Source of the DNA: Deltaproteobacteria bacterium
GTDB taxonomy: Bacteria; JACQOV01
DNA length: 36,469 nucleotides
Direction: 5' to 3'
Assembly (NCBI GenBank): GCA_016202395.1
Contig: JACQOV010000010.1
Location: 1-36,469 of the forward strand
The translations under genes were made by a program, and so were the position numbers. Below are positions 10,395 through 27,484 of this stretch, one piece after another. Positions within the stretch are counted from its first letter, which is position 1, and every line of letters begins with the position of its first letter. The notes beneath the pieces are model-generated. The model did not search any database, was not told where the DNA came from, and saw only the letters and a program-made list of their open reading frames with translations.

Positions 10395-10477
10395 GCCGCA
10401 GTGGTGGAACTTGGCAGACACACCATCTTGAGGGGGTGGCGCCGAAAGGCGTGTGGGTTCAAATCCCACCTGCGGCA
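10395..10477 (+). tRNA. tRNA-Leu (anticodon GAG); CCA not encoded
   Basis: Acceptor stem GCCGCAG/CTGCGGC, D-loop GG, anticodon arm CCATC-TTGAGGG-GGTGG, long variable arm, T arm GTGGGTTCAAATCCCAC. Confidence 0.97.
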
Positions 10478-10517
10478 TATTTAGAGACTGCGGATACACA
10501 TTTATAACGAGGCTGTT

Positions 10518-11945
10518 ATCGATCCGATTAAAGAAATAGCTTCTCCAGAAAAATCAACGCCCCCTCTTGAACCAGAGAAAATTTCCTCCTCCAAAGAAAA
10601 TTTTAGGATCCTTGTCTCTATCCAAGATTTCAAATTTTTAGAACAACTTAAACTCGATCTCGAAAATAAAAAATGCGAAATTCTAGCTGAAGACCCCGAT
10701 CGTTACTTCTCCAATTCCTACTCCGATCCTGTGGATCTTATGATTACCGATGGGTCTCACTCTGAGACGCAAGACACGGAATGGGTGCGAAAAGTCAAAG
10801 AATTCGATCCGCTGACCGAGGTCATCCTTGTGGATCAAAATCCACCGCGTGAACGAATGATTCATGCCGTAAAAGAAGGGGCCTACGATTTTCTTCCCCT
10901 GCCAATCGATTTAAAAGCCTTGCTCCGCTCCATTCGAGAGATCGATGAAAATCGGAGATTGCGCCATAAAGTGGGAGAACTTCAAAATCAGCTCGAGGAA
11001 GCGGTTGTTTTTCATGGGATTGTGGCTCGAAGCCCTGTCATGTTGGAAATTTTCTCCATGATCCGAAGACTTGCCAAGCATTTCACCACGGTTTTGATCA
11101 CGGGTGAGACCGGAACGGGCAAGGAGATGGTCGCTCGGGCTCTTCATGAACTCAGCCCCCGACGGGGCAAGAATTTCATTGCCTGTAATTGCTCGGCGCT
11201 CGTGGAAACTCTTCTTGAAAGCGAGCTGTTCGGTCATGTGAAGGGGGCTTTCACTGGCGCTATTCGGACCAAACATGGATTATTTGAAGTCGCCGATGGA
11301 GGAACGATCTTCCTCGACGAAATCGGAGAGCTTTCTCCTCAAACTCAAGTTAAACTGCTCCGTGTTCTCCAAAATCAAGAGGTCAAACGGGTGGGATCGA
11401 ACGAAACGATTCAAGTGGATGCTCGGGTTGTCACCGCCACTAATCAAGACCTCGTGAAGGGGATGCAAGAAGGGCGTTTCCGTGAAGATCTTTACTATCG
11501 ATTAAATACGGCTGAGATTTATCTTCCCCCTCTCCGCGAACGCCGAGAAGATATCCCCCTCCTGGTGAAACACTTCTTGAGCGCGATGAATCAAAAACTT
11601 GGAAAAAAGATCAAAGGGATTACTCGTCAAGCCCAAATCGCTCTTCTGAACTATCCATGGAAAGGGAATGTCCGCGAATTGGAAAATGTCATCGAACGAG
11701 CCTCGCTTTTGGCTTCCAAAGATTTTATCACACTGACGGATCTCCCTTCTCACTTGCAACAGTTCACCAACCCGGTGCGGTCGAGCGAATCGATTCCACT
11801 CGATATGAAGACTCTGGAGGAGGTCGAGGGAGACCACATTCGACGTGTCATGAAAAATGTAAGTGGAAATAAGACGGTAGCTGCCAGGATTTTGGGTGTG
11901 AGCCGGCGCTCGCTTTATCGCAAATTCGAAAAATACAAACTGTAA
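10518..11945 (+). CDS. Sigma-54-dependent enhancer-binding protein (atypical receiver + AAA+ + Fis HTH); start uncertain
   Basis: GETGTGKE, ESELFGHVKGAFTGA, FLDEIGE, FREDLYYRL, WKGNVRELEN, C-terminal HTH. The frame is open from 10485; the first canonical start (GTG 10731) falls mid-receiver, so a non-canonical start near ATC 10518 is proposed. Confidence 0.9.
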   Translation: MDPIKEIASPEKSTPPLEPEKISSSKENFRILVSIQDFKFLEQLKLDLENKKCEILAEDPDRYFSNSYSDPVDLMITDGSHSETQDTEWVRKVKEFDPLTEVILVDQNPPRERMIHAVKEGAYDFLPLPIDLKALLRSIREIDENRRLRHKVGELQNQLEEAVVFHGIVARSPVMLEIFSMIRRLAKHFTTVLITGETGTGKEMVARALHELSPRRGKNFIACNCSALVETLLESELFGHVKGAFTGAIRTKHGLFEVADGGTIFLDEIGELSPQTQVKLLRVLQNQEVKRVGSNETIQVDARVVTATNQDLVKGMQEGRFREDLYYRLNTAEIYLPPLRERREDIPLLVKHFLSAMNQKLGKKIKGITRQAQIALLNYPWKGNVRELENVIERASLLASKDFITLTDLPSHLQQFTNPVRSSESIPLDMKTLEEVEGDHIRRVMKNVSGNKTVAARILGVSRRSLYRKFEKYKL

Positions 11946-11946
11946 C

Positions 11947-12067
11947 GGCTGCTCAAAAAATCCATCTGCTTCGTTGCCCTCCCTCGGCACTCGTTGCGGC
12001 GTACTAACCAAGTACGCCTCACTCGGCCTCAGTCGGGCGCCTCGCATCTGGAGCTTTTTGAGCAGCC
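11947..12067. repeat. Third copy of the structured repeat core, reverse orientation, with different outer inverted arms
   Basis: Arms ggctgctcaaaaa...tttttgagcagcc; the reverse complement of the core matches 1-61 (gaggcgtacttggttagtacgccgca..gagtg..gagggag..caacgaag). Begins immediately after the activator stop codon. Confidence 0.85.
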
Positions 12068-12203
12068 TAATTTCTTATGCGCTTGCAAGCGCACTGTGAA
12101 TTTTTTAGCCTTTTTGTGACTAGTACGCACATATAAATCCTTCCATTCCTAGCGACTCAAAATATAAATCAATAAAATCATGGAGTTATAAAAAGCCCCT
12201 TTT

Positions 12204-12219
12204 CGGCATGGATTTTGCA
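12204..12219 (+). promoter_or_regulatory. Sigma-54 (-24/-12) promoter
   Basis: CGGCATGGATTTTGCA has correct GG-N10-GC spacing, close to the TGGCACG-N4-TTGCA consensus; upstream is an AT-rich stretch with an IHF-like AATCATGGAGTTA. Confidence 0.75.
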
Positions 12220-12259
12220 TATTCCTTAGGTGAAGAGCTTGAAACGGAAGGTAACCACC

Positions 12260-12658
12260 ATGACGAAGGACCAAAAAATATTAATCTTGGGAATGGAAAA
12301 AGAGGGGGCCCAGGCTCTTATTCAACTTCTCCAATCGTGGGGGTATTCCGGAATCTGGATCCAAGACCCTCAAAAACTTTTTCAAGCCATCTCCTCCTAT
12401 CAACCCTGTCTTGGACTCATCGATCTCGATTCTGAAAACAATGGGGCTATGGAGACACTGAGACACCTCCGAAAAGATTCTCCCCATTTTCCTGTAATCG
12501 CCGCCACCTCTCAGGATTCCCTTGAGATGGAAAGAACCATCCGAGCCCTTGGAATCTTTTACTTGTGCCTCAAGCCTTATGATCCTGAAGAACTCCAATT
12601 GGCCATTGAAAGGGCAACGAATTATATCGAGGTTGAGCAAGCTCTCTACGCCTCGTAA
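12260..12658 (+). CDS. Stand-alone response regulator receiver (atypical acidic pocket)
   Basis: KILIL, LIDLD, VIAATS and LKPY receiver motifs; ATG 12260 with GGAAGGT RBS; no output domain. Confidence 0.85.
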   Translation: MTKDQKILILGMEKEGAQALIQLLQSWGYSGIWIQDPQKLFQAISSYQPCLGLIDLDSENNGAMETLRHLRKDSPHFPVIAATSQDSLEMERTIRALGIFYLCLKPYDPEELQLAIERATNYIEVEQALYAS

Positions 12659-12662
12659 AAGG

Positions 12663-13433
12663 TTAGCTCCTCTTCTTTGGACTCATCGCATCCCCCACCG
12701 GGTCGGTCTCGTCTTGGATGAATCTCTTGAGGTTATGAAGCTCCTGATAAACCCTCGCCATCTGCGGAGCCACATGCTCCCCCCACAGCGCCGTGACCCA
12801 GTTCAATAACTCCTCTTTGTCCTTCTCTTGAACCTCCCCCTTCTTTTTTTTCTCACTGTAAGCTTTAAGCTTCTCCTCCAATAACTGAAAATAAGTGTAC
12901 ACCGCGGTAAAAGGATTGTTCACATTATGCCCTATCTCGTTAACGACGCGGTAGCGGTGTTCTAACCGATCCAGCGCCATCGCCCTCTCCTGAGCCATCT
13001 TGAGATCGAGAACCGCTTTGCGCAACTCCTCATTCTGTCGCTCCAAGGTCTGCTTCTGTGCCTGATCCGCGATCAACATCTGAAGAATGATCACCACCTC
13101 CTCCTCTTTCCCACTCAAGGGCTTGCGAAGGTATTGATGGATCTTCCCCTCATTAATGGCTCGAAGCAACAAATCCTCATCCTGATAGGCCGTGAGCATC
13201 ATCCGTGGAACGTTTGGGGCCACCTTCCGACACTCCTTCAAAAACTCGATCCCGCTCATCGAATCCATCTTCTCATCGGCAATCACCACCTGAATCGGCT
13301 CCTTTTTAAGAAACCCCAGCCCCTCCTCCCCACTCTGGACCGTGAGCACCCTAAAATGCTTCTCAAATTGACGCCGAAACAGATAAAGCTGATCCTTCTC
13401 ATCATCCACATATAATATCGTCGGTTTCTCCAT
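12663..13433 (-). CDS. Receiver + coiled coil + HisKA-like (DHp) protein with no HATPase domain
   Basis: Canonical REC (YVDDE, IADEKM, LTAY, RKP); H-box-like NEIGHNVNNP; no N/G1/F/G2 boxes; GAGGAGG RBS; paralog of 29804-30556. Confidence 0.88.
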   Translation of the reverse strand: MEKPTILYVDDEKDQLYLFRRQFEKHFRVLTVQSGEEGLGFLKKEPIQVVIADEKMDSMSGIEFLKECRKVAPNVPRMMLTAYQDEDLLLRAINEGKIHQYLRKPLSGKEEEVVIILQMLIADQAQKQTLERQNEELRKAVLDLKMAQERAMALDRLEHRYRVVNEIGHNVNNPFTAVYTYFQLLEEKLKAYSEKKKKGEVQEKDKEELLNWVTALWGEHVAPQMARVYQELHNLKRFIQDETDPVGDAMSPKKRS

Positions 13434-13451
13434 CGATCGCCTCCTCTTCTT

Positions 13452-15947
13452 TTACGATCCCTTCACTCCCCCTATGGGAAACAACAGAACCATACGGGTT
13501 CCTGTATGAATATCACTCTCAATCCCCATCTTCCCACCATGGCGCTCCATCACTTTCCTGATAAACGAAACCCCCATTCCGGTGCCCTTTCCAACGGCTT
13601 TCGTCGTGAAGTAGCCACGCATCACCTTTTCCACGTTCTCTTTAGGAATGCCGCACCCGTTATCTGCCACCTCCAGTCGGATCCATTCCCCTTCTGGGCC
13701 AATCCGCACCTCGATCCTCCCCTTCCAACCCTCCCCCCTCCCCTCGGCTTCCCTTCGAGATTGAATCGCATCACGAGAATTGATAAATAGATTCATGAGA
13801 ACCTCGTGAATCTGTCCTGGATTGCCCGGAATCCGTGGCACTCCTTCCGCACACTCGAGCTCAAAATTAATCCCAGAACGGCCGATATCATAATCCAAAA
13901 TCCGCTTCACCAACTCCACACACCCCTTCAAATCCACAGGTTCCACTCGGTCACTCATCCGAACAAACTCCTTGATCTCTTTCACCATCTGGACCGAGGT
14001 CATCAAACAATCATGCTGAAACCGCTGATCCTCCTCGATTTGCTCAAAGAGCTTGGCCAAATCTGCATGCTGAGAAATCCGAGGATCCTTTCGAAGCGTT
14101 TCAAACCCCTGTACTAAAAGCTCCGTCCCACCGGCCAAAGCCCCAATCTTATTCCCCACTTCATGCGAAAAAGAGGCCACCAACTGGCCCAGAGTCCCAA
14201 TTTTATCCAGTTGTGCGTTGATCTCAAACTGCTCTTCCCTCTGCTGAAAATGCTCCGCGTTGGCCAACGCCACTGAAACGCTCCGGGAAAGCATCTGAAG
14301 GAGCTCGACATCCTCCGCGCCATACAGCTCCCCGCTCTTCTTTCGCCCCAATAATAGAAAACCGGTGAGCTTCTCCTGAAATCGAATCGGTAACGCCAAT
14401 TCAACCCCCATCCGAATCAAATCGGGAAGCATCTTCTCCCGAACTTCCTGATACCGGGGATCATTGGCTAACTCAAAAGCCATCACCCCACTCTTCTCAT
14501 CACTCAACACTTGAACCAAAGGATGATTCGCTGAAATCTCTTGGACCCACTTGGAATTCCACACCTCTCCAGCCCAAAAAACATAGCTCCCCTCTTTCTC
14601 ACTCCATTGAAACAACGCCACCTTCTCGACCCTCATCGCCGAGTTAATCCCCTTGATGAGTTTCCGAGCAATGTGCCCCGTATCTAACAACTGGGTCAAA
14701 GATTCACCCACGGCCTGGAATGCCTCCCTATATGTCTGCTCCCGATCTAAAGAAGGCTTGTTTAAAAAGCCTTTCACAACATCAAAAAACACGGTCGTGA
14801 AAACGAGCATGCCTACAAAAATCAACGTCGGAGCATAGGCGCTTTGCATAAACGCTCCTCCTATCCCTAAAGCCCTCGCCCCAAACACAATCAGAGCCGC
14901 ATAAAAGGCCGATAATAGGTAGCTCCACAACGCGGATAGAATACTTCTCTTAAGAAAAAGACTCACCTGAAACAAGTCATGCCGCGCCACGGCCAAAGCG
15001 ATTCCAAATGGAAAAATCACCAAAGGAAGTAAATACAGATTGGGTGGAACCGGGATCTGTAGCAGCCAACAATAGACTTTTAGCAAAATAGGAATCGATA
15101 CTATCAATACGGTGGCCATCAACACCACCCGAGCCCGAAGACGCTCCACTAAAATGTAAGACTCCCGATAAGCAACCGCAGACGTGATCAGAAAGATTCC
15201 GACTGCAATCATTATTAAACCTGCATTGAGGCGGTCCATAATTAACCATGTCCATTTACTGTCATAAAGGGAGACTTCCAAGAAAGCCGCGATCAACAAA
15301 CTAAAAAGAAACGGATATTGTGAAATAGAAGGGAATCGTTGCAAGATCCTTTGTTGTGAGGGAAAGCGAAGACCCAAATGAATAATCGACGCTGGCAATA
15401 AGCTCACTATAAGAAGATAGAGTCGATAAAAACGGTGTGTCGACACCGCATCGAAACTTAAAAGGAGAAAAAAGGCCACATTAAAAGAGAATAATGACAA
15501 AGAGCGCGCTACTGCTGTTTGAGCCCCAAATCCTACGATGGCGCCATAAGCGAAATAAATACAGCTTGTAAACAACACCGTTCCCAAAAGCCAAAAAATG
15601 TCAATCCATTGTATTTTAATCGGATGTAGTTCTAGAGTACGAGACTCTTTCCCACTACTCAACGTAACTAAGAATGGAATCCCTTCGCCCTTCCCCTCAA
15701 TATGGCTATAAAAATCCTTCCGATTTCTAATATCAACTCCATCAATGGCAACTACCTTAGCCGGATAGCGAACAAACTCATCTAATCCTTTCCAACTTTG
15801 GAAACGATTGGATGAAACAACGAGATTGGGATAAATCAGGAAACCTGTGGAAGGTTTCTCCAACCATCGAATAGCATCTAAAGTGCAAATGGCCCCCAAT
15901 ATCAAAAAGCTAATGAATGCTACCCATAGTATCCACCTGTCTGACAT
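13452..15947 (-). CDS. Membrane sensor histidine kinase (PDZ-like periplasmic region, multi-TM, GAF, HisKA, HATPase)
   Basis: 831 aa; VVAIDG PDZ-like strand, roughly 9-10 hydrophobic segments, GAF (LALPIRFQEKLTGFLLLG.KKSGELY..ED.ELL), H-box SHEVGN, NLFINSRDA, DNGCGI, FTTK..GKGTGMG. Confidence 0.9.
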   Translation of the reverse strand: MSDRWILWVAFISFLILGAICTLDAIRWLEKPSTGFLIYPNLVVSSNRFQSWKGLDEFVRYPAKVVAIDGVDIRNRKDFYSHIEGKGEGIPFLVTLSSGKESRTLELHPIKIQWIDIFWLLGTVLFTSCIYFAYGAIVGFGAQTAVARSLSLFSFNVAFFLLLSFDAVSTHRFYRLYLLIVSLLPASIIHLGLRFPSQQRILQRFPSISQYPFLFSLLIAAFLEVSLYDSKWTWLIMDRLNAGLIMIAVGIFLITSAVAYRESYILVERLRARVVLMATVLIVSIPILLKVYCWLLQIPVPPNLYLLPLVIFPFGIALAVARHDLFQVSLFLKRSILSALWSYLLSAFYAALIVFGARALGIGGAFMQSAYAPTLIFVGMLVFTTVFFDVVKGFLNKPSLDREQTYREAFQAVGESLTQLLDTGHIARKLIKGINSAMRVEKVALFQWSEKEGSYVFWAGEVWNSKWVQEISANHPLVQVLSDEKSGVMAFELANDPRYQEVREKMLPDLIRMGVELALPIRFQEKLTGFLLLGRKKSGELYGAEDVELLQMLSRSVSVALANAEHFQQREEQFEINAQLDKIGTLGQLVASFSHEVGNKIGALAGGTELLVQGFETLRKDPRISQHADLAKLFEQIEEDQRFQHDCLMTSVQMVKEIKEFVRMSDRVEPVDLKGCVELVKRILDYDIGRSGINFELECAEGVPRIPGNPGQIHEVLMNLFINSRDAIQSRREAEGRGEGWKGRIEVRIGPEGEWIRLEVADNGCGIPKENVEKVMRGYFTTKAVGKGTGMGVSFIRKVMERHGGKMGIESDIHTGTRMVLLFPIGGVKGS

Positions 15948-15952
15948 GCTCC

Positions 15953-18295
15953 CTAACTTTCTTTCATTGTCAAATCAGTTTTTTCGGAAACAATTGTTTC
16001 GACTCTAGCAAGCGAAGCCATACGAATGGGTTTGATCAACATTAACAATGCCGGTAAAACGATAACGTCTCCTACTAAAGCGGCCATAACTGCAATCCCA
16101 GAAAGAAGACCGAAATTGACCATCGGAACAAAAGACGAAAAAACGAGAACCCAAAAGCCTGCTGCCAATACGAAAGAAGTATAAACAATGGGCTGTCCTA
16201 CTTTTTCCATGGTTGCTCTCAGCGCTACACCATAATCCCCTTTCTGTGTTAATTCATGACGAAAACCATGGAGAAAATGGATTGTGTCATCGACTGCCAT
16301 AGAGATGACAATAGAGGCTATCGTACATGTCCCCATGTCCAGAAAAATCCCCCACTTCCCCATGACTCCCAAAATAATAACGACTGGAAAAACATTCGCG
16401 GGTATAGCAATCAAGGCTAACCGCCAGGATCGAAGAGCAATCATCAAAACAATGAAAATCAATACAAACGCCAACGCAAAACTCTGAATCTCTGTATCAA
16501 GAACCTCCACGGTCATTTTTTGGCCCAACCACAAGTCTCCTGTCAACTGAATATTGAGCTTTGGATCAAAATTCTGAGCTAGATGCTCTTTAATCTGCTC
16601 TGACATAGCGACAAATTCTTTGGAGGGCAAAATCTTTGAACGCGCCGTCACACGCATACGCTTTCCATCTGCTGAAAGATAACTCTTTATCCCCCTCTCA
16701 CCCCCCATATCTGCCACAAATATTAGCAATCGTTCAATAGAATTCTTTTCTGTAGGAATTGTATAGAAGCTGGGATCCCCTCCATGAAGTTCTTGATTGG
16801 TCTTCTTTAAAATATCGGCAAGCGAGAAACTTTTATCAATAGATGGAAAGCTCTCAAGATATTGTTGCAGTTCTTCCATCTGGTGTAACACAGGATACTC
16901 TAAAACTTCGCTACCGTCCTTGTAACCCACAGAAAACTCTACCGCAGGCCAATCACCAATCTTTTCGGTGACTAATCGCTCATGTTGCATGACTTCGCTA
17001 TTCTCTTTTAGAAATTGCAAATGATAGGTATCGACAATAACCCTAGAAACCCATGTCCCAAATAAGAGGACAAGAAGAAGAGCCCCAAGGAGAACGGGGC
17101 GCCGATATCTATCGGCAAAGCTCCCAAGAATAACGGTCAATTCCTTAATAACAGATCCTTCTTTTTTCATATGGGAGAGAGGATCCCACTTCAAACGACT
17201 CAAAGCTAAGGGAAGAAGTGTGAAAGTTAAGAGATAAGAAACAACGACTCCAAACGCAGAATACAATCCAAACTCCTGAACCGTAGTTACGGAACTCGTA
17301 AGCAAGGAGAGAAAACCTAGAGATGTCGTTACACTCGCCCACAAACAGGGAGTCGCTACTTGAGAAACTGCTTCTAACACAATATGATGTCGATCTTCTG
17401 TTGGCCTGAACCTTTGCCGATAAGCGCTCAATAAATGCGTACTATTTAAAACGCCATAGACAAGTAACAGCGGTAAGACCACTTCTGTCAATGGACTCAA
17501 AAACTTTCCAATGGCCGCAACAAACCCAAGAGTCCATATGACGCTAATACCCGCAATCATCAGTGGGGTTCCTGGAACCCATGAATTACGGAAGATATAA
17601 AATAAAACTAAAAAGATCATGAGCAACAAGATGGGCGTGATGATTCGATTATCTCGCTCGTAGGCTTCTTCCAATGAAACCTGATATACGGGGATTCCTC
17701 CTAAAAAAACCGTGAGCCCCTCTATCTTTTCTGCGTTCTCAATAATAGAGCGAAGCTCTTGAACCAATTCCCTCTTGTAGGTAGGGCTTGATGATTTCTT
17801 GAGAAGGATTAAGACATTGGTTGCTTTACCATCCTTAGCAATCAAAAAGGTCTTGTAATAAAGTGGATCGGAAAGGACTCGCTCTCTAACGGCTCCCATA
17901 TCTGAAGATTCAAGGGTAGATAGCTCATCTTCTAAAGAACCGACAACTAAAATCTCCCCCTGGTTATAGGCAGAGTTAAAATTAGTGACACTCAAGACTT
18001 GTTCAACCTGCGGAAGTTCCTCAAACTGGTGAGTCATCCGATCCACTAATCTCAATACGCGAAGATCAAAAACATCTTCATAAAAGTAGTGAACCGATAT
18101 AAATTCGTCCGTTCCAAACTCTTTATAAAAATCGTTATAGTACTGAAGGTCAGGATCATCGGGGTGAAATGTTGCAGCAATGTCTGTATTGACTTTTAAC
18201 TCTTGAAATTGCCAACCCAAGTAAATCGTTGGAATCAAAACAATGAGGATCGTTGCTAGAGCGTGGTCCAAAACCCAACGAACAATACGAACCAT
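15953..18295 (-). CDS. MMPL/RND family transporter
   Basis: 780 aa; two repeats of TM + soluble domain + 5 TM; AVDDTIHF and TTSLGFLSL...VQEFG motifs; GGAG RBS. Confidence 0.9.
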   Translation of the reverse strand: MVRIVRWVLDHALATILIVLIPTIYLGWQFQELKVNTDIAATFHPDDPDLQYYNDFYKEFGTDEFISVHYFYEDVFDLRVLRLVDRMTHQFEELPQVEQVLSVTNFNSAYNQGEILVVGSLEDELSTLESSDMGAVRERVLSDPLYYKTFLIAKDGKATNVLILLKKSSSPTYKRELVQELRSIIENAEKIEGLTVFLGGIPVYQVSLEEAYERDNRIITPILLLMIFLVLFYIFRNSWVPGTPLMIAGISVIWTLGFVAAIGKFLSPLTEVVLPLLLVYGVLNSTHLLSAYRQRFRPTEDRHHIVLEAVSQVATPCLWASVTTSLGFLSLLTSSVTTVQEFGLYSAFGVVVSYLLTFTLLPLALSRLKWDPLSHMKKEGSVIKELTVILGSFADRYRRPVLLGALLLVLLFGTWVSRVIVDTYHLQFLKENSEVMQHERLVTEKIGDWPAVEFSVGYKDGSEVLEYPVLHQMEELQQYLESFPSIDKSFSLADILKKTNQELHGGDPSFYTIPTEKNSIERLLIFVADMGGERGIKSYLSADGKRMRVTARSKILPSKEFVAMSEQIKEHLAQNFDPKLNIQLTGDLWLGQKMTVEVLDTEIQSFALAFVLIFIVLMIALRSWRLALIAIPANVFPVVIILGVMGKWGIFLDMGTCTIASIVISMAVDDTIHFLHGFRHELTQKGDYGVALRATMEKVGQPIVYTSFVLAAGFWVLVFSSFVPMVNFGLLSGIAVMAALVGDVIVLPALLMLIKPIRMASLARVETIVSEKTDLTMKES

Positions 18296-18343
18296 TTCAT
18301 CTCCCTTTCATTGATTTACACCAGAACATGATAAAACAACAGT

Positions 18344-19812
18344 TTAAGCAACCCTTGGCAACTCCATTTCTCTTTCCTCGACGAAACGCCCCGATGCATC
18401 ATATCTACCTTCTTCGACTTGTTTTAAATAAGGGATATAGGCTTGCATTTCTTGAAGGAACGACTTCATCATAAGGCGACGAAACCACTGGTAAAAACTC
18501 ACAACTATTTGGCCCTTAAAAAGGTTTGTTAAAATACTCCTCCAGGAGTAGAAGGAACGGTAAGCATCGTAAATGCCCTGCTGAAGCTCGCTGGGCTTTA
18601 TATTTTTTGGGAAATGAGTGATGAACTGGAGATTATAATAATCCCAATTCTTCTGAAATATCCTATCAGAAGAAATGACCCTCTCGGGTCCTTCTGGAAA
18701 CTCTGTGAGTACATTCATCATCATCCAACCTGCGCCACTTTTCTGAGTCCACTCTAAGGTTTGTTTAACGGTGTCTTTCGTGTCATTATCACTTCCTAAA
18801 ACAAAACCAGCACAAACTTGAATGCCATAACGACGAATCCTCTGTATCGAGTCTTCCACTTTTTCGATCGTCTGTTTTTTATCATAATCATCGAGTGTTT
18901 TATTATCAACGGATTCCACTCCCATAAATAACCAAGTAACACCTGCTCTTTTCATTAAATCGAGCATCTCTAAATCTTCAGCGACCTCATAGCGTGCAAA
19001 CACCAATGAATGTGACTTTACACCACTTTTGATGATCTCTTTTAAAACCGCTTTCGTCCTCTCTCGATTCACCCCAAAATAACTATCAAGAATAATGAGC
19101 CAGTTAGGAAAGCCAGGAAAGAAAGACGTCTTACTTCTTAAATCCTCTGCCACGGCTTCGGGACTTCGATGACGCATCGTCTTCATCCCGATCCGCCAAC
19201 AAAATTTGCACGGATAGGGACAACCACGTGAAGTTTCCAAAAAATGCGCATGGGCTTTGGCCTGAAGAAAAAGCTTGATAGGATTTAATTGTTGATAACC
19301 ACAAACTAACGAAAGGTCGGGAATTATATCAAAATTCTTTAAAAGTTCTCTCGAAGGATTATGGTAAGGCACGCCGTTTTTAATATAAGAAATTCCTTTT
19401 ACACCCTTCAAATCACCGCCATTGTTAAGCATTGTTAACAATTCTAAAATGGTTTCCTCCCCTTCTTCTCTAACCACATAATCTACATGCTGAATAGCAT
19501 CATCGGGTAACATCGATGCATGAGGTCCACCCAAAACAACGGGAATATTTCTACGTCCTTAATCCTTTGAACCATTTCATAAACGCAATTAACACTACAA
19601 GTAACAGCCGAGAAGCCGACTAAATCTGCTTGTAATACCCTTTCCCAAGGAATAGGAGCGATCCTCTCCATAAAAACCTCTACTTCATAACCCGCTTGTT
19701 TCAAAACGGTACCTATCAATGGCAATGCATTTTCGGTCATGTAAAAGCGTTTTTCAAAATCCGGGAATCGAGGATTCGGAGAAATAAGCGCAATTTTTTG
19801 GATAGGCTTCAC
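18344..19812 (-). pseudogene. B12-binding radical SAM enzyme (class B type) with a 1-nt frameshift near 19556 (true pseudogene or sequence error)
   Basis: The N-terminal frame from GTG 19812 (KIALISP...LPLIGTVLKQAGYEV...DLVGFS) joins the C-terminal frame (NIPVVLGGPHAS, VVREEGEET, ETSRGCPYPCKFC, MGVES) only if one base is restored at ATT AAG GA^CGT. Confidence 0.85.
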
Positions 19813-19855
19813 AGCAGAGCCCCCCCTATAGTTTGACCGGATCGCGTTCTGCCTG

Positions 19856-19884
19856 TTTGTACCACAGAACCTACTAAAACTCAA
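19856..19884 (-). promoter_or_regulatory. Possible sigma-70 promoter for the radical SAM cassette
   Basis: TTGAGT-17 nt-TACAAA with an extended -10 TG; weak match. Confidence 0.3.
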
Positions 19885-19975
19885 ACAAATTTTTAAACTT
19901 TAGCGAGCCCTTTTGACTCGATGCGTTACGATTCGCAATTCGCGCCGAACGGGGCGAATTCGAGCGGGGCCATGA

Positions 19976-20010: not shown

Positions 20011-21543
20011 ATGCGGGGATTTCTAGTTCCTATTTTGCTCCTTTTAACCTTCGCAGGTTGCTCCTCCAATTCAATCCCAAATGACACGCTTGTTGTTGGG
20101 ATCGAGTCCAATCCAACACAGCTCGATCCACGACTTGCGACCGATGCTTATTCCGTTCGAATCAGCCATCTTCTTTTCGATGGTCTTTTAAGATTTAATG
20201 AAAAAGGGGAGGCGATCCCTTGGATTGCTAAAAATTGGTTGAACCCGGATCCTTTGACTTATATCTTCACTCTTCGCTCCTCCATCTCTTTTCACGATGG
20301 AACCCCGTTGACGGCCTCTGATGTGGTCTACACCTTTGAAAGCATGAAGGACCCTCAACTCCGTTCCCCGAACCTCGCCACACTGGAGGCGCTCGATTCC
20401 GTCACCGCCACCCACGCCAACACCGTCGTTTTTAGATTGAAGGAGCCTTACATTCCATTTTTGCATCTCCTAGACATCGGGATCGTCCCGCAAAGGCAGG
20501 TGGAACAAGATCCTCAAGGTTTTCGTAAAAATCCGATTGGGACAGGGCCCTTTCAATTGGACGCCTGGAAAGTGGATGACGCGTTAGTTTTAACGGCCAA
20601 TCTCCATCATTTTTTAATCTCTCCCCATCTTAAAAAAGTGATCTTCAAGATTATCCCCAACGATACCACACGTCTCTTGGAGCTTCGAAAGGGATCCGTT
20701 GAATTTGTCCAAAATGCGGTGAGCCCCGATCTTCTCCCTTTTCTCTCCAGATCGAAACGCCTAGAGATCATCGAAACAGAAGGGACAAGCTACTCCTATC
20801 TCGGAATGAATCTCCAAGACTCTGTTTTAAAGAATCTTCAAGTGCGCCAAGCCATGGCCTATGCTTTAAATCGTGAAGAGATTGTTCAATATCTTCTAGA
20901 GAATAAAGCGGAGTTAGCCGCGGGGCCTCTCGCCCCTCCTATTTTTGGCCATACCGATTCAGTCGAAAAGTTTTTCCACGACCCTGAGAAGGCTAAGGCG
21001 CTCTTGGATGAAGCAGGCTATGAGGATCCCGATGGAGAAGGCCCTCTCCCCCGCTTCTCTCTCTCTTACAAAACCACCGATAATCCCCTTCGCAAACGGA
21101 TCGCCGAGGTTCTCAAATTGCAATTGGCCTCTGTCGGAATTGAACTTCAAGTGCGCACTTACGAGTGGGGAACCTTCTTTTCGGATATCCAGAAAGGAAA
21201 CTTTCAACTTTTCACCCTGACTTGGGTCGGAATCTCGGAGCCGGATATCCTCTACTACCTCTTTCATTCTAAAAGCGCCCCTCCCCAGGGGGCCAATCGA
21301 GGACATTATCAAAACGTTGAGGTAGATGCTTTGCTTGAAGAAGGCCGAAGGACCTTAGATCCTGAAGAGAGAAAAAAAATCTATCGAGAGGTTCAAAAGA
21401 TTCTTGCCGAGGATCTCCCTTACATCAGCCTCTGGTATCCTCACACCTTGATTGTCATGGATAAAAGAATTCGAGGATTTATTCCGTATCCGAATGGGGC
21501 CTTCGATTCCTTTATCCAAGTCCACAAGGAAACAGCATTATGA
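20011..21543 (+). CDS. Peptide ABC transporter substrate-binding lipoprotein (family 5, OppA/DppA-like)
   Basis: Lipobox FAGC; LDP, FHDGTPLTASDV and PIGTGPF motifs. Confidence 0.93.
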   Translation: MRGFLVPILLLLTFAGCSSNSIPNDTLVVGIESNPTQLDPRLATDAYSVRISHLLFDGLLRFNEKGEAIPWIAKNWLNPDPLTYIFTLRSSISFHDGTPLTASDVVYTFESMKDPQLRSPNLATLEALDSVTATHANTVVFRLKEPYIPFLHLLDIGIVPQRQVEQDPQGFRKNPIGTGPFQLDAWKVDDALVLTANLHHFLISPHLKKVIFKIIPNDTTRLLELRKGSVEFVQNAVSPDLLPFLSRSKRLEIIETEGTSYSYLGMNLQDSVLKNLQVRQAMAYALNREEIVQYLLENKAELAAGPLAPPIFGHTDSVEKFFHDPEKAKALLDEAGYEDPDGEGPLPRFSLSYKTTDNPLRKRIAEVLKLQLASVGIELQVRTYEWGTFFSDIQKGNFQLFTLTWVGISEPDILYYLFHSKSAPPQGANRGHYQNVEVDALLEEGRRTLDPEERKKIYREVQKILAEDLPYISLWYPHTLIVMDKRIRGFIPYPNGAFDSFIQVHKETAL

Positions 21544-22469
21544 AGAAAGGGATCCGGCGCCTCGCTTTATTTATACCCACCTTATGGGGGGCTGTGACGA
21601 TCGTCTTTCTACTCATTCACCTCACCCCGGGAGACCCTGTAGAGCTGATGTTGGGAGAGTATGCCTTATCCACAGACAAAGCGATGCTCCGCTCTGAACT
21701 GGGGTTGGATCAACCGATCCTCGCGCAATATTTTCGGTTCCTTCAAGGGCTCGCTCACGCCGATTTGGGCCACTCGTTTGCTTATCAAACCTCTGTTTTC
21801 TCGATTCTGATCGAGCGTTTCCCCGCAACGTTAGAGTTGGCTTTTGCTTCTCTTCTCATCGCGATACTCATCGCCCTCCCCTTGGGGATCGCGGCGGCGC
21901 TCCGTCCGAATTCGATGCAAGATCATCTCTGTCGTGGATTCTCTTTGCTGGGAGTTTCCATGCCCAATTTCTGGTTAGGTCCTCTTCTCATCCTGATTTT
22001 TTCGATTGGACTCAATGGACTCCCGGTCTCGGGACGAGAGGGCTTCACGAGCCTCATTCTCCCAGCGCTCACCCTCGGAACCTCCCTCTCGGGAATCCTC
22101 TCGAGGATGGTTCGAGCCAGTCTCCTAGACACCCTTGGAGAAGAATACATCCGTGCCGCCCATGCCCGAGGGATCCCTTTCCAACGCGTGATCCTGAAAC
22201 ATGCGCTAAAAAACTCACTCCTCCCGGTAGTCACCATCCTTGGGCTCCAAGCGGGAGCGCTCCTCTCGGGAGCTGTGATTACGGAAACGATCTTCTCTTG
22301 GCCAGGAGTGGGGCGACTTTTAATCCAAGGGATTCAGATGCGGGATTATCCACTCGTTCAGGGAACTGTTCTGTTTTTTTCTCTGAGTTATCTCCTAGTT
22401 CATCTTCTTGTCGATGCCACCATTGCCATCATTGACCCCAGAACAAAAGAGAGTGGAAAAGAATCATGA
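21540..22469 (+). CDS. Peptide ABC transporter permease (DppB/OppB-like)
   Basis: PGDPV, LGLDQP, RFPATLELA, SMPNFWLG, EAA loop YIRAAHARG, ETIFSWPGVG. Confidence 0.93.
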   Translation: MKKGIRRLALFIPTLWGAVTIVFLLIHLTPGDPVELMLGEYALSTDKAMLRSELGLDQPILAQYFRFLQGLAHADLGHSFAYQTSVFSILIERFPATLELAFASLLIAILIALPLGIAAALRPNSMQDHLCRGFSLLGVSMPNFWLGPLLILIFSIGLNGLPVSGREGFTSLILPALTLGTSLSGILSRMVRASLLDTLGEEYIRAAHARGIPFQRVILKHALKNSLLPVVTILGLQAGALLSGAVITETIFSWPGVGRLLIQGIQMRDYPLVQGTVLFFSLSYLLVHLLVDATIAIIDPRTKESGKES

Positions 22470-22476
22470 GGCGCCC

Positions 22477-23283
22477 ATGAAAAGTCTTCCTTTTCGCATC
22501 GCCTTTATCGCCCTTCTCTTTCTGGCTCTCGGAGGAGCTTTGGCCCCATGGGTGGCCCCCTATAATCCTGACACGATCACACTTTCGGAACAACTCTCCC
22601 CTCCCAATAGCGAGCATTGGTTCGGCCAAGATCGTTTGGGAAGGGATATCCTCAGCCGCTGGCTTTACTCCGCTCGTCTCTCCCTCTCGATCAGTTTTTT
22701 TGTGGTTCTTCTTTCACTCACGTTTGGCGCGTTGATTGGAATGATCTCTGGATATCGCGGCGGTTGGCTGGACGAGATCCTCATGAGGATGGTCGACATC
22801 TTGCTCGCTTTTCCCGGCCTCCTCCTCGCCATTGCTTTGACGGCGGTCATGGGCCCCAGTCTTTTCAATATCATTTTTGCTCTTTCACTTCTCGGCTGGA
22901 CCAGCTACGCGCGCTTGGCTCGAACCCAAACGTTGAGCCTCAAAAATCGAGATTATATCCAAGCGACTCAAGCTCTGGGGACTCCGATCCGTCGAATCTT
23001 CTTAAAACACCTTCTTCCGAATCTCGCGGGGCCTCTCTTGGTCCAAGCAACGTTCAGTTTAGCCGGCGTTATTTTGGCTGAATCGAGCCTGAGCTTCCTG
23101 GGACTAGGTCCTCAAAATCATCCTACCTGGGGTGGGATGTTGAGTGAAGGGGTCGAATACCTATTCCGAGCCCCCACCTTGTCAATCTTTCCTGGCATCG
23201 CTATAATGGCCTCGGTCCTTTCACTCAATATCTTGGGAGATCAGTTACGGGATAAGCTGGACCCTAAATCAAAACATCTATGA
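22477..23283 (+). CDS. Peptide ABC transporter permease (DppC/OppC-like)
   Basis: HWFGQDRLGRDI, HLLPN, ESSLSFLGLG, PTWGGML, GDQLRDKLDP; ATG 22477 with GAGG RBS. Confidence 0.93.
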   Translation: MKSLPFRIAFIALLFLALGGALAPWVAPYNPDTITLSEQLSPPNSEHWFGQDRLGRDILSRWLYSARLSLSISFFVVLLSLTFGALIGMISGYRGGWLDEILMRMVDILLAFPGLLLAIALTAVMGPSLFNIIFALSLLGWTSYARLARTQTLSLKNRDYIQATQALGTPIRRIFLKHLLPNLAGPLLVQATFSLAGVILAESSLSFLGLGPQNHPTWGGMLSEGVEYLFRAPTLSIFPGIAIMASVLSLNILGDQLRDKLDPKSKHL

Positions 23284-24371
23284 GCATTTCAATCCGACAG
23301 TTGGCAGCGGAACATTTTGTTGTCGGTTTCAAAGAAACCTCCTTTACCCTCTCCCTCCAAAAATGGATTCAAGAAAATCGTTGGGGAGGCTACATCCTTT
23401 TCAGCGAAAATTATGAGTCCCCTCAACAGCTTTATCAACTCTGTCAGGGGATCAAGAAGGAGTATCCCGCTCCCCCTTTTCTCTCGGTCGATCAAGAGGG
23501 GGGACCGGTGCTGCGGTTTAGAGAGAAGTTTACAAAACTGCCTTCGGCGCGCGACATTGGAAAGGCCTACGGAAGATCAAAAAATGTGAGTTGCGCCTAT
23601 CAATGTGGAACCATTGCGGCAAAAGAGCTCGCAACGGTTGGCATCAATTGGGATCTAGCCCCTGTTTTAGATGCCTCCAACAACCCTGAAAACACGGTGA
23701 TCGGGGGTCGCGCATTTAGTGATAAACCTTACGTGGTAAGTGTTCTAGGGCTTGCTTTTATCGCCGGGCTGCAAGACAACGGTGTCATGGCTTGCGGCAA
23801 GCATTTTCCGGGACATGGATGCACCACCGAGGATTCCCATCACGTTCTACCCAGAGTGGAATACTCCTCCCAACGGCTCGCAACGATGGAGATGGAACCG
23901 TTCCTTCGAGCGATCGAAAATGGAATTTTCTCTCTCATGACGGCTCACGTTCTCTATCCCAATTTGGATTCTGAAAAACCGGCCTCCCTTTCCAAAAAAA
24001 TTCAAACTCAATTGATTCGAAAACAGAAACGATTCGAGGGGATTCTCGTGACCGACGATCTAGCGATGAAAGCGATCACACTGCACCAATCGATTCCAGA
24101 AGCAACCCTTGACGCCATCCTAGCGGGAACAGATATGGTATTGCTTCGTGGAGATTCCGATGCTCAGGCTTCGGCTCTCGCAGCGGTGACGCAGGAGGCA
24201 GAAAGAAGTCCAGCATTCCGATCCAAACTTGAGAATTCCAGCCATCGTCTTCAACGCATCCAAAAAGAATATCTTTCGAGACGAAATGAATATGAAGGGA
24301 ACCTCTCGTTGATTGGCTGTCCAGACCATCAAAACTATATCGTTGAGTTGTTGGAGGGTTATGAAACCTAA
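23280..24371 (+). CDS. nagZ: Beta-N-acetylhexosaminidase (GH3)
   Basis: VDQEGG, NagZ signature KHFPGHG....DSH, MTAHV, nucleophile TDDLAM. Confidence 0.92.
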   Translation: MSISIRQLAAEHFVVGFKETSFTLSLQKWIQENRWGGYILFSENYESPQQLYQLCQGIKKEYPAPPFLSVDQEGGPVLRFREKFTKLPSARDIGKAYGRSKNVSCAYQCGTIAAKELATVGINWDLAPVLDASNNPENTVIGGRAFSDKPYVVSVLGLAFIAGLQDNGVMACGKHFPGHGCTTEDSHHVLPRVEYSSQRLATMEMEPFLRAIENGIFSLMTAHVLYPNLDSEKPASLSKKIQTQLIRKQKRFEGILVTDDLAMKAITLHQSIPEATLDAILAGTDMVLLRGDSDAQASALAAVTQEAERSPAFRSKLENSSHRLQRIQKEYLSRRNEYEGNLSLIGCPDHQNYIVELLEGYET

Positions 24372-25095
24372 AATTGGCGTTACTGCAGACTTCGACCGAA
24401 CATCCATTCCTCTTCGACCTGGAGAGCCCGGTTCTTACTTCGTTCGTGAAGCCTACATCCGATCTCTGGCCGAGGCAGGAGCCATTCCAGTGATTCTCCC
24501 CTATCTTCAAGATCGAAATTCAATCCGAACGGTAGTCTCTAGTCTTCAAGGAATTCTGCTCACCGGAGGAGACTTTGACATCGATCCTCAATTCTACGGG
24601 GAAAAGCCCCATCCAAAACTTGGAAAACTCCTGAGGGAAAGAACCCATTTTGAGATGGAGATGGCTAGGGCTGCGATGCATCGGGATCTGCCAATTCTCG
24701 GAATCTGTGGCGGTGAGCAAGTAATCAATGTTTTATTAGGAGGCTCTCTCTACCAAGATATTGTAAGCCAGCTCCCTCAAACTCATCCCCACCAAACCTC
24801 TAAAGAGGGAAAGAGGACGTTTCATCCTGTTCTCATTCAACCCAGGACAAAACTCAGCCGTATTCTTGGGGCTCAGCCGCTCACAGTGAACAGCACTCAT
24901 CACCAGGCGATTAAAATACTTGGGAAAAGATTAAAAGCCAACGCCCTTGCAAAAGATGGAGTGATTGAAGGGTTTGAATCCCCTCGACACCGATTCCTGA
25001 TCGGGATTCAATGGCACCCGGAGCTCTTAATCGAGCGGGATCCTAGACATCTAAAACTCTTCAAAGCCTTTGTCCAAGCGACTCGAAGTTCGTAG
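24361..25095 (+). CDS. Peptidase C26 / gamma-glutamyl hydrolase family (class I glutamine amidotransferase fold)
   Basis: KPKIGV, LLTGG.FDIDP..YG, LGICGG, VNSTHHQA, QWHPE. Confidence 0.9.
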   Translation: MKPKIGVTADFDRTSIPLRPGEPGSYFVREAYIRSLAEAGAIPVILPYLQDRNSIRTVVSSLQGILLTGGDFDIDPQFYGEKPHPKLGKLLRERTHFEMEMARAAMHRDLPILGICGGEQVINVLLGGSLYQDIVSQLPQTHPHQTSKEGKRTFHPVLIQPRTKLSRILGAQPLTVNSTHHQAIKILGKRLKANALAKDGVIEGFESPRHRFLIGIQWHPELLIERDPRHLKLFKAFVQATRSS

Positions 25096-25098
25096 TCT

Positions 25099-25893
25099 TC
25101 AGCTCTCGAAAGCAATCCTGTAAAGCCCCATGTGCGTTAACTCCATGTCGAGTTTTTCAAAAACAGGCTTCCCAGAGACCGTCAGTTCGTTTTTCTCAGA
25201 AACGTAATCCATTCCCGAATAGTTTGTCTCCACGACAAAGCCAAGTATCTCACCCAAGAATTTGCTAAACCCTGTCTTTTCAAATAAAGTAACTACCGCG
25301 GGATGATCCCCTTCAAAGTTTCCCACCGCCTCTATGAATCCTAACGTCAGCCCTGCAGAGACACTTTTGATAGCTCTCTCTCTATATGCAAAACGAAGCG
25401 CCGCGACTCTATTATTCGGATGAATAAGATAGGCTCCTTGCATCACCTCTTTCTTTTGAGGATCCACCTGAAGCGAAAACTCTCCTAAACGACGGATGTA
25501 AGGGCCTCGATTCGGGTGCCCGATAGCATCGAGCGTCTTGCCACGAACCGTGAATTTGGAAAGATTTTCAGTGGTAGCTAAAAAATGGATCATCCGATCT
25601 TTATTGGGAAACGTTTCGACTTTTAACAGCACAAATGACAGCTCATTTTCTTCACCGGATTCTTCAAAATCCAAACGATTTAATACGGCAAAGATAGAGA
25701 TCGGCATCCTCCCCTTGCCTGTTGTGATAAGCTGCTGAGCCAGATCGGAGTGACTTTGAATGGTATACTCGAGAAACGGAATGCCATCGACAGAAGATTC
25801 CTTCACTCCCAATTCAAAGGCAATGACCCAACCACAATTCAAGAGAATAAGAAACGCTATCCCCAGTCGGAACCGAAAAGACGTTTTTATCAC
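25099..25893 (-). CDS. Hypothetical exported protein
   Basis: ~264 aa from GTG 25893 (GGAAGG RBS), directly after the deacylase stop; signal-peptide-like N terminus; no recognised motif. Confidence 0.6.
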   Translation of the reverse strand: MIKTSFRFRLGIAFLILLNCGWVIAFELGVKESSVDGIPFLEYTIQSHSDLAQQLITTGKGRMPISIFAVLNRLDFEESGEENELSFVLLKVETFPNKDRMIHFLATTENLSKFTVRGKTLDAIGHPNRGPYIRRLGEFSLQVDPQKKEVMQGAYLIHPNNRVAALRFAYRERAIKSVSAGLTLGFIEAVGNFEGDHPAVVTLFEKTGFSKFLGEILGFVVETNYSGMDYVSEKNELTVSGKPVFEKLDMELTHMGLYRIAFES

Positions 25894-25894
25894 T

Positions 25895-27484
25895 TTAACC
25901 TTCCTTCCTTCGGAGAACGTGACCCGCCATGGCGCTGGTGTGTTCATTCTGATCGATAGTGACCACTCCATTAACAATCACGTAAGGAATCCCCACAGGG
26001 TATTGATGAGGTTGAATGTAGGTCGCCTTGTCCTCCACTTTGGAAGGATCGATCAGAACCAAATCGGCATAAGCCCCTTTTTGAATAACACCGCGGTTTT
26101 TAAGATGGAATCGTCGGGCGGGACCACCCGTCATTTTCTGAATTGCTTGAGACCAGTCCACAACCTTTTTCTTTCGAACATATTCGCTAAGCATCCTTGG
26201 AAACGTGCCATAGGCTCGAGGATGAGGCTTCCCCTCAAAGAGAGGGCCTTCCGTGGCTCGCAATGCGGCATCCGAGGCAACAAAACAGTAATCTTTGGAA
26301 ATAATACGACAGAAGTTTTCCTCACTCATCGTAAAATAAATCGCAGTGGTTTGAGCCTCCTCCTCTTCTAAAATGGAATAAATCGCCTCGAAAACCTCTT
26401 GATTGCGTCTTTGAGCGCACTCTCTGAGAGTGAGCCCTTCTAAATCTTTGTTTTTAGGATTAAACGACTGAGCGATTCGGATCCGATCCCAATAATCCGG
26501 CTCCGGGTGATCTAGTAAAACCTCCCTTTCAATCCGTTTTCTAACCATGGAATCTCGAAGCCGAGTTAGCATCTCCGTTTTTGTTCCCTCCAAAACCCAT
26601 TCAGGAAAAACAGCCGATAGCCCCGTGTAGGAAGCCGTATAAGGGTAGCGGTCCGCCTGAACATCATGCCCCTGATTACGAGCCTCTTCGATAAGATCGA
26701 AAACAGGATCGATCTTGCTCCAATTCTGAGGACCCGAAGTTTTAAGATGAGAAATCTGAATTCCAATTTGAGCTTTTCGTCCGATCTCAATGGCCTCGGC
26801 AACCGCCTCAACCACCTTCTTCCCTTCACTCCGCATATGAAAAGCCATGAGCGATCGATAAGGCCTTAAAACTTTGGCCAATGCCACCATCTCCTCCGAA
26901 GTAGAAAAACAGGCGGGAGAATAGATCAGGCCGGTCGAAAGTCCCAAAGCCCCCTCCTCCATCCCCTGCTTCAAAAGCTGCTGCATTTTTTGGAGCTCTG
27001 CCTCGTTAGGAGGCCGATTGTCCCCATTCATCACAGAGGCACGAAGGGTGTTGTGACCGACCAATAAACCAAAATTGACGGAGATTTTCTGAGATTCGAG
27101 TTTATGGAAATATTCGGAAACACTTAACCAAGGGAGGCTCAAACCGTAGTATTTTTTAAATGATTTTTCCCGCTCACGAGCCAACGAATCCAAAATGGGA
27201 GCCGCCGCATAACCGCAATTCCCGCCGATTTCGGTTGTGACCCCTTGACGAACCTTGCTATCTGCCCGCGGCCAAATGCAGAGGTGATAGTCGGAATGGG
27301 AATGAACATCGATAAACCCTGGAGCGAGGATCAGCCCCCTTCCATCAATCACTCGTCTCGCTTTCGAGTTCTCAACCTTCCCCACCGCCTCCATTCGATC
27401 CTTATGAACAGCCACCGACCCCGTGAAGGAGGGCTTCCCCGTTCCATCGAAGATCTCCGCTTCTTCAATCAATAAATCCAGCAT
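25895..27484 (-). CDS. N-acyl-D-amino-acid deacylase (D-aminoacylase), amidohydrolase superfamily
   Basis: PGFIDVHSHSD, QGVTTEIGGNCG, GLSTGLIY.P, HMRSE, ISHLK, YPYTA, PHPRAYGTFPR, ADLVLIDP. Confidence 0.92.
   Translation of the reverse strand: MLDLLIEEAEIFDGTGKPSFTGSVAVHKDRMEAVGKVENSKARRVIDGRGLILAPGFIDVHSHSDYHLCIWPRADSKVRQGVTTEIGGNCGYAAAPILDSLAREREKSFKKYYGLSLPWLSVSEYFHKLESQKISVNFGLLVGHNTLRASVMNGDNRPPNEAELQKMQQLLKQGMEEGALGLSTGLIYSPACFSTSEEMVALAKVLRPYRSLMAFHMRSEGKKVVEAVAEAIEIGRKAQIGIQISHLKTSGPQNWSKIDPVFDLIEEARNQGHDVQADRYPYTASYTGLSAVFPEWVLEGTKTEMLTRLRDSMVRKRIEREVLLDHPEPDYWDRIRIAQSFNPKNKDLEGLTLRECAQRRNQEVFEAIYSILEEEEAQTTAIYFTMSEENFCRIISKDYCFVASDAALRATEGPLFEGKPHPRAYGTFPRMLSEYVRKKKVVDWSQAIQKMTGGPARRFHLKNRGVIQKGAYADLVLIDPSKVEDKATYIQPHQYPVGIPYVIVNGVVTIDQNEHTSAMAGHVLRRKEG

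Follow-up and report, generated by a model that had tools for sequence, protein, structure and literature searches.

What, if anything, connects a radical S-adenosylmethionine (SAM) enzyme, a lipid-type membrane transporter and a histidine kinase whose genes lie almost end to end? The question is raised by cassette 1, at positions 12663-19812 of the 36,469-nt stretch analysed here (the window), contig JACQOV010000010.1 of an uncultured deltaproteobacterium. In this cassette, genes for a class B (B12-binding) radical SAM enzyme, an MMPL/HAE3-type RND transporter (MMPL1), a membrane histidine kinase (HK1) and a protein joining a receiver (REC) domain to a putative dimerization and histidine phosphotransfer (DHp) hairpin (RD1) follow one another on the minus strand. 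A preliminary description of the window had proposed that the enzyme makes a hydrophobic molecule, which the transporter exports or presents and the kinase senses. The pairing of enzyme and transporter and the coupling of transporter and kinase found support, whereas a general linkage of these genes and an analogy with hopanoid synthesis did not. The reading favoured below, tentatively, is that of a lineage-specific operon family encoding a transporter-coupled phosphorelay tied to a hydrophobic product of the radical SAM enzyme.

The window corresponds to contig C90 of a metagenome-assembled genome of 1.9 Mb (108 contigs, 89% complete; C-numbers denote contigs of this genome), and the system is known so far from this one uncultured lineage. 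Matching DNA is present in groundwater metagenome runs, all from one study, and no RNA run was listed among them. Copies within the genome were located by tblastn together with open reading frame (ORF) maps, and domains were assigned with Pfam and NCBIfam profiles. The radical SAM copies of cassettes 1 and 2 are referred to as c1 and c2 and the REC/DHp proteins as RD1 and RD2; P-numbers are protein records from searches and L-numbers are loci examined.

Two cassettes and their copies in the genome

Cassette 1 had been described as four tightly packed, co-oriented genes, and its minus-strand ORFs are indeed separated by gaps of only 48, 5 and 18 nt:

18344-19812, minus strand, class B (B12-binding) radical SAM enzyme, GTG start at 19812 (Radical_SAM 70 bits)
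15953-18295, minus strand, MMPL/HAE3-type RND transporter, type A, 780 aa (PF03176 165 bits, Sterol-sensing 47 bits)
13452-15947, minus strand, membrane histidine kinase HK1, 831 aa (GAF 33.6 bits, HATPase_c 68.4 bits)
12663-13433, minus strand, RD1, REC plus putative DHp hairpin without the catalytic ATPase (CA) domain, 256 aa (Response_reg 67.8 bits)

A pathway for a ribosomally synthesized and post-translationally modified peptide was considered and rejected, since gaps of this size leave no space for a precursor ORF.

The gene order of cassette 1 was said to recur at 29804-36469. The domain order does so loosely, but the exact gene set does not, as cassette 2 has transporter and kinase fused in one ORF and carries an extra REC-kinase:

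35699-36469, minus strand, radical SAM enzyme, C-terminal 256 aa, cut by the window end (Radical_SAM 40 bits)
31881-35660, minus strand, type B MMPL fused to a multi-transmembrane (7TM) region, coiled coil, DHp and CA, 1259 aa (MMPL, Sterol-sensing, HisKA and HATPase_c in one ORF; hydropathy)
30553-31857, minus strand, REC-DHp-CA hybrid kinase without a cassette 1 counterpart, 434 aa (Response_reg 59.7 bits, HATPase_c 84 bits)
29804-30616, minus strand, RD2, REC plus DHp without CA (Response_reg 64.5 bits; HisKA 19.5 bits, below cut-off)

Cassette 2 is packed with spacings of 38 nt and 23 nt and an ATGA overlap, the last formed with the upstream stop by the likely RD2 start at ATG 30556 (Met21 of the ORF). 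Identities between the cassettes are 57% over 234 aa for the radical SAM enzymes, 30% over 748 aa for the MMPL proteins, 27% over 266 aa for the kinases (catalytic core only) and 46% over 251 aa for the REC/DHp proteins.

Six radical SAM copies, 51-70% identical, were found in the genome: c1, c2 and those on C36, C74, C98 and C71. Behind the radical SAM gene, C36 shows an MMPL gene and then the contig end, and C74 an MMPL gene, a kinase gene and then the contig end; C98 and C71 end inside the radical SAM gene. Wherever downstream DNA is visible (4/4 copies: c1, c2, C36 and C74), an MMPL gene comes next, which supports the proposed pairing of enzyme and transporter. No end overlaps were found joining contigs C98, C90, C36, C74, C71, C91 and C102. 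Upstream of the C74 cassette (11365-15663), ORFs resembling phage baseplate and tail genes were recognized by eye.

As written, the radical SAM gene of cassette 1 is broken by a 1-nt shift into two overlapping ORFs (19483-19884 and 18344-19534), and alignment with four paralogues reveals a single-base gap. An extra base follows plus-strand position 19558 in Logan contigs of all three runs covering the site (X1, X2 and X4; X3 does not span it, and X1-X4 represent one study, not several). With this base the frame is open throughout, as 84 aa, one codon and 404 aa. Since independent contigs of 3/3 covering runs carry the base, the gene is probably intact, encoding about 489 aa from the GTG at 19812; with the base missing, the public gene call P0001 is shortened to 389 aa. 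The cluster motif CPYPCKFC is present in c1, and its CxxxCxxC cysteines (Cys201, Cys205 and Cys208) are invariant in alignment A1. The B12-binding domain (PF02310) is matched in c1 by two sub-threshold pieces (17.1 and 18.8 bits) split by the frame break, and in the paralogues at 43.7-54.2 bits against a cut-off of 32.1. By these sequence features the cassette 1 enzyme is a class B radical SAM protein with predicted cobalamin binding, and every class B radical SAM gene detected in the genome falls in the cassette clade. Scores with the equivalog models HpnJ (123.6 against a cut-off of 577.6 bits), BchE (123.2 against 481.35) and HpnR (80.9 against 650) place it in none of these families.

In a word-indexed search the only external proteins more than 50% identical to the enzyme were five fragments on short contigs, the next best being 38% identical. 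Four of the genome's own copies and these five fragments form one clade in the tree (support 100/100), in which P0008 pairs with c1 (98/97) and P0005 with C74 (96/93). Because external fragments group with individual paralogues, the duplications are old and predate a split between related organisms, with the copies kept since. The nearest relatives outside this clade (32-40% identity; L010, L099, L103, L109, L045 and L098) lie in tandem arrays of 2-4 radical SAM genes, mostly B12-binding and with varied neighbours, a FakA/DegV-like gene adjoining the array in L109.

The transporter, the kinase and the REC/DHp protein

MMPL1 has the 12-TM (transmembrane segment) layout of an RND protein: PF03176 matches over two stretches and hydropathy peaks fall in two blocks. 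It scored 245.7 bits with the HAE3 model TIGR00921, under the subfamily cut-off of 351.9, and did not reach the HpnN equivalog cut-offs (121.8 against 751.85 bits and 85.7 against 1100 bits), while its best solved relative is HpnN (5khn, E 1.3e-10). Sterol-sensing-domain matches occur in both cassette MMPLs (47 and 49 bits). When the alignment was inspected by eye, transmembrane segment (TM) 4 of MMPL1 was found to read GVLNS at the position of the acid in GVDFS of HpnN, although TM10 retains VDDTIH. The genome holds five type A genes (c1, C36, C41a, C41b and C74; 38-58% mutual identity), two of type B (c2 and C101; 49% mutual identity, and about 30% towards type A) and a third group on C4 (∼24% identity). 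The tandem pair on C41, which joins C78 through a 68-nt contig overlap, lies between an argC-like gene and kdsB-, pyrG-, lptC- and lptA-like genes; these names were assigned by eye, and the KDO- and Lpt-like genes among them make this an outer-membrane lipid context.

Hydropathy and domain assignments give HK1 a first TM, an extracytoplasmic stretch of ∼90 aa, about eight more hydrophobic segments, then GAF (residues 425-561 in Pfam), DHp and CA (HATPase_c 709-825). NCBIfam kinase models align to residues 570-826, an SHEVGN box occurs in the sequence, and Pfam HisKA itself gave no match. The sensor region, residues 1-420, has no Pfam match and was modelled poorly by AlphaFold2 (AF2; predicted local distance difference test score, pLDDT, 53.8); PDZ/HisKA_7TM is for this region an Atlas lead only.

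The case for a coupling of transporter and kinase comes from gene fusions. Cassette 2 encodes the two as one protein, and contig C101 carries the split form, an MMPL gene followed after 41 nt by a 7TM kinase gene (49% and 35% identical to the corresponding parts of the fusion). Among the 120 relatives of the fusion that were listed, three join MMPL with HisKA and HATPase_c (P0124, P0125 and P0127; 989-1001 aa) and five join MMPL with a cNMP-binding domain. In P0125, whose 90% cluster has nine members, MMPL ends at about residue 739 and DHp starts at 754, within about 15 residues. Direct MMPL-kinase fusions, though rare, do occur in other organisms, and these MMPL-DHp-CA proteins speak for the RND fold being able to drive a kinase. 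Because cassette 2 has a fusion, C101 a split pair and unrelated records direct fusions, transporter and kinase are read here as a candidate functional unit. A transporter acting as co-sensor of a kinase is established for BceAB-BceS and DctA-DcuS (PMC6978683).

The genes on C101 form a locus of their own (L169; 145-6525, minus strand), in which a serine palmitoyltransferase (SPT)/BioF-like oxoamine synthase and a 374-aa protein, labelled GNAT-like as an Atlas lead, are encoded directly upstream of the separate type B MMPL and 7TM kinase genes; together with C41, this was taken as a sign of a lipid context for MMPL paralogues. The synthase scored 453 bits with an SPT model (cut-off 640) and 205 bits, below cut-off, with a CqsA-type model.

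RD1 has an intact receiver: residues D10, D11, D53, T81 and K104 are invariant in alignment A3, and the domain aligns with the receiver of HupR. Beyond it, RD1 aligns with the cassette 2 REC-kinase over the coiled coil and the two DHp helices and stops where CA would start. Asp53, His169 and Pro174 are invariant in A3, an alignment of four sequences (the cassette 2 REC-kinase, RD1, RD2 and P0242), but none of these three residues is so in A4, which takes in nine. The AF2 model (pLDDT 86.5) has REC at 1-108, helices at 110-197 and 203-242 and a disordered tail, and Foldseek matched it to receivers and to the REC-DHp-CA protein LvrB. Pfam HisKA gave no match for RD1, and its match to RD2 lies under the cut-off of 26.9 bits. 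The H-box of RD1 is HNVNNP, within a family pattern HN(V/L)(N/R)NP that has Asn at both +1 and +4. Among HisKA kinases, only the kinase activity requires an acidic residue at +1, and only the phosphatase activity requires Thr or Asn at +4 (PMC3510030). As both the acidic residue next to the histidine and the ATPase domain are absent, RD1 is predicted to be unable to autophosphorylate. Its C-terminal module is rare, with 11 matches at E<=0.001 among 1.84 billion representatives, three of them sharing the 256-258 aa build; a word search added one further relative.

Upstream DNA and neighbouring genes

Five upstream regions of the paralogues were aligned, and a promoter-like block is common to them. 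Within the region upstream of cassette 1 lies a 24-nt palindrome, AATTSG-N12-CSAATT, which occurs only three times in the genome (window 19937-19960, C36 at 14999 and C98 at 8856). All three lie upstream of cassette radical SAM genes, and their inner arms differ yet stay complementary, so that the element could be an operator or a hairpin. A sigma-54 promoter upstream of the radical SAM genes was rejected, because the GG-N10-GC match, judged by eye, is restricted to c1 and absent from its paralogues; a sigma-54 consensus scan returned nothing specific, and a scan for known RNA elements returned a tRNA only. The features of this DNA and of the other side of cassette 1 are:

19813-19960, minus strand, upstream region of cassette 1, promoter-like TTGAGT-N17-TACAAA block common to the paralogues
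12230-12658, plus strand, single-domain receiver, 142 aa, candidate partner (Response_reg 37 bits, VpsR domain 26.6 bits)
10731-11945, plus strand, sigma-54 enhancer-binding protein with Fis-type helix-turn-helix (HTH), a candidate output as neighbour only (Sigma54_activat 233 bits, HTH_8 45 bits)
10395-10477, tRNA-Leu (GAG), between secG and the sigma-54 activator

Neither cassette encodes a DNA-binding output, as had been stated earlier and as a domain scan of the cassette proteins bore out. The 142-aa receiver is convergent with the REC/DHp gene, with 4 nt between the stops. The open frame of the sigma-54 activator (10490-11945) continues upstream of the first standard start codon into a stretch resembling REC, NFRILVSIQD..., which lacks an acidic pair as well as any ATG, GTG or TTG start. 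A degenerate receiver, an unusual start or another assembly slip could each account for it. On contig C91, a REC/DHp paralogue has directly downstream of it a gene (L174; 2946-3920, minus strand) for a 324-aa protein in which Fis-type HTH motifs are repeated (PF02954 41.9 bits), a possible DNA-binding output of that cassette. No counterpart of this protein was found on the window.

Between the two cassettes, the block 20011-29754 encodes a family 5 solute-binding protein with two permeases, a GH3 NagZ-like protein, a peptidase C26, an amidohydrolase, an APH-type kinase and a nucleotidyl transferase. By its gene content it looks like a cell-wall recycling cluster, and the APH-type kinase and nucleotidyl transferase are presumably AmgK/MurU-like. 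A small ORF at 6181-6492 matches a ParE toxin family (26.8 bits).

A possible transporter-coupled phosphorelay and its alternatives

In the reading that we favour, though as possible rather than probable, the class B radical SAM enzyme would modify a hydrophobic, probably lipid-like molecule, and the MMPL/HAE3 RND protein would move or hold the modified molecule in the envelope. Kinase and transporter would act as one unit, the kinase reading the load or activity of the transporter as BceS reads BceAB, and HK1 would phosphorylate Asp53 of the REC/DHp protein. The latter might then be a phosphotransferase gated by its receiver, comparable to a Spo0F-Spo0B fusion, or a phosphatase acting on a terminal regulator distinct from it; these roles are suggested because the phospho-accepting histidine and the +4 Asn are present and autophosphorylation appears impossible. 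The output would be encoded outside the cassette and would probably feed back on cassette expression, resulting in envelope-lipid homeostasis rather than cell-to-cell signalling.

Several observations weigh against this proposal. Because paralogues share descent, the four enzyme-transporter pairs are not four independent observations, and two type A MMPL genes of the same genome (C41a and C41b) have no radical SAM or kinase neighbour. Linkage elsewhere was assessed at relatives of the radical SAM enzyme with 25-40% identity (80 genome loci and 79 metagenome loci, with flanks of up to 10 kb). An MMPL1-like gene was found at 0/80 and 0/79 of these loci, respectively; at two of the 80 genome loci the cassette 2 query gave a weak RND-like match, and kinase matches occurred at 11/80 genome and 6/79 metagenome loci. 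Among the 14 best loci with mapped ORFs, seven were scanned with Pfam, and at six of these the radical SAM gene stands in a tandem array of such genes. Conversely, MMPL1-like genes were found in 115 of 401 sampled genomes at identities of up to 32%, and at the 29 best such loci none had a radical SAM, kinase or REC match within 1.5 kb. Since the homologues inspected elsewhere are unlinked, the association of radical SAM enzyme and MMPL is not general; the preliminary description had itself named unlinked homologues of the enzyme as part of what would refute its proposal. Within cassette 1, HK1 has a large sensor region of its own together with GAF and so need not depend on the transporter, and, as the MMPLs are merely 30% identical, the argument from the cassette 2 fusion reaches cassette 1 by analogy only. 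The nearest named families of the enzyme, HpnJ and BchE, are matched at ∼123 bits, far below their cut-offs, so that the sequence lends no support to any particular substrate. No terminal regulator was identified.

Three other explanations were weighed against the same evidence. In a scheme resembling quorum sensing, the radical SAM enzyme would make an autoinducer, the MMPL protein would export it and the kinase would sense it outside the cell, each cassette being a separate channel. The gene logic is that of synthase and membrane-kinase pairs, several diverged cassettes occur within a 1.9 Mb genome, the differing inner arms of the three palindromes could insulate channels, and the oxoamine synthase on C101 belongs to a family that also contains CqsA-type autoinducer synthases. 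Cassette 1, however, has no member of a known autoinducer synthase family; we know of no class B radical SAM autoinducer synthase, no search having been made on that point; release of the product from the cell is without support, and a transporter fused to a kinase suits the sensing of transport load more than that of a pool outside the cell. We therefore regard this scheme as unlikely. Alternatively, the MMPL protein could be a receptor rather than a pump, as a counterpart in bacteria of proteins with a sterol-sensing domain, binding a hydrophobic ligand from outside or from the membrane and switching the kinase, while the radical SAM enzyme modifies or detoxifies the ligand. The sterol-sensing-domain matches in both MMPLs, the direct fusion in P0125, which has no other sensor domain, the MMPL-cNMP-binding fusions and the TM4 substitution in MMPL1 would all suit a receptor. 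The retained acidic pair of TM10 (by eye) is usual for proton-driven RND proteins, however, no ligand candidate is at hand and HK1 has its own sensor region, and a receptor role seems improbable.

It is also conceivable, if doubtful, that the genes are co-located and functionally separate, with the kinase and REC/DHp protein regulating other targets and the shared order being a relic of block duplication. Consistent with this, the linkage is absent outside the lineage in the loci inspected and the genome contains many kinase and REC genes, among them an HK1-like kinase beside a sigma-54 activator and without MMPL (C88) and a REC/DHp-like gene with REC-kinases alone (C22). Yet the order has been kept despite divergence to 30-57% identity, MMPL and kinase are fused in cassette 2, and the gaps are very short, with an ATGA overlap. 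Going beyond the phosphorelay that we favour, there is a slim chance that RND/MMPL proteins serve as ligand-sensing inputs of kinases, in parallel to signalling by sterol-sensing-domain proteins, and that the cassettes are insulated channels, each with its own radical-SAM-made lipid, transporter-kinase, CA-less relay and operator variant, which together would constitute a lipid-based signalling code.

Comparison with known systems delimits what is new. The preliminary analogy with hopanoid synthesis has a basis in hpnJ/hpnP/hpnR and hpnN, where a B12-type radical SAM enzyme likewise stands beside an HAE3/MMPL transporter, and the named families that match best include HpnJ and HpnN; it was nevertheless rejected, as the HpnJ, HpnR and HpnN scores lie far under the family cut-offs and no squalene-hopene cyclase (PF13243) was found in the 89%-complete genome. 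Hopanoid clusters are not known to carry a kinase relay. As in BceAB-BceRS and DctA-DcuS, for which PMC6978683 describes a transporter encoded beside a histidine kinase as its sensing partner, transporter and kinase are here associated, by gene fusion and adjacency alone. Those transporters are ABC or secondary carriers, whereas the present one is an RND protein that can be fused to its kinase and is accompanied by an enzyme gene, with a REC/DHp protein, in place of a DNA-binding regulator, as the predicted next step. Phosphorelays of the Spo0F-Spo0B and ChpT types pass from a receiver to a histidine-bearing four-helix-bundle transfer step that does not autophosphorylate. RD1 differs in having both parts in one 256-aa chain with no CA-like domain left, and a transfer role would be matched by an equally possible phosphatase role. 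LvrB of Leptospira (PDB 8vc9) shares the succession of REC, long helix and DHp (246 columns of the RD1 model in Foldseek), and the NCBIfam LvrB model matches the cassette kinases; LvrB keeps CA, unlike RD1. PrsK/PrsR of PEP-CTERM systems resemble HK1 in the multi-TM, GAF and kinase-core layout and in a sigma-54 activator, found here beside the HK1 paralogue on C88 and near cassette 1, but TIGR02916 scored 83 bits against a cut-off of 300 and no PEP-CTERM or exosortase context was seen. In the eukaryotic SCAP, Patched and NPC1, membrane proteins of the RND fold, the binding of lipids is coupled to signalling; the Pfam sterol-sensing-domain matches recall these proteins, although the similarity is distant and the output here is a histidine kinase.

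Literature searches aimed at systems of radical SAM enzyme, MMPL and kinase, or at kinases fused to HAE3/MMPL proteins, found no paper on either, and further ones returned general work on two-component systems only. The components are of known kinds; what is new, as variants, is their combination, the MMPL-kinase fusion and the REC/DHp family that lacks CA, confined so far to one uncultured lineage. Two groups emerge that had not been described, a small family of proteins with receiver and DHp but no ATPase domain, and a class B radical SAM clade whose constant partner is a lipid-type transporter, a partnership that narrows the search for the substrate. Should the coupling prove real, RND/MMPL proteins would join the short list of transporters that act as co-sensors of kinases, and their fused forms are ready-made objects for structural study.

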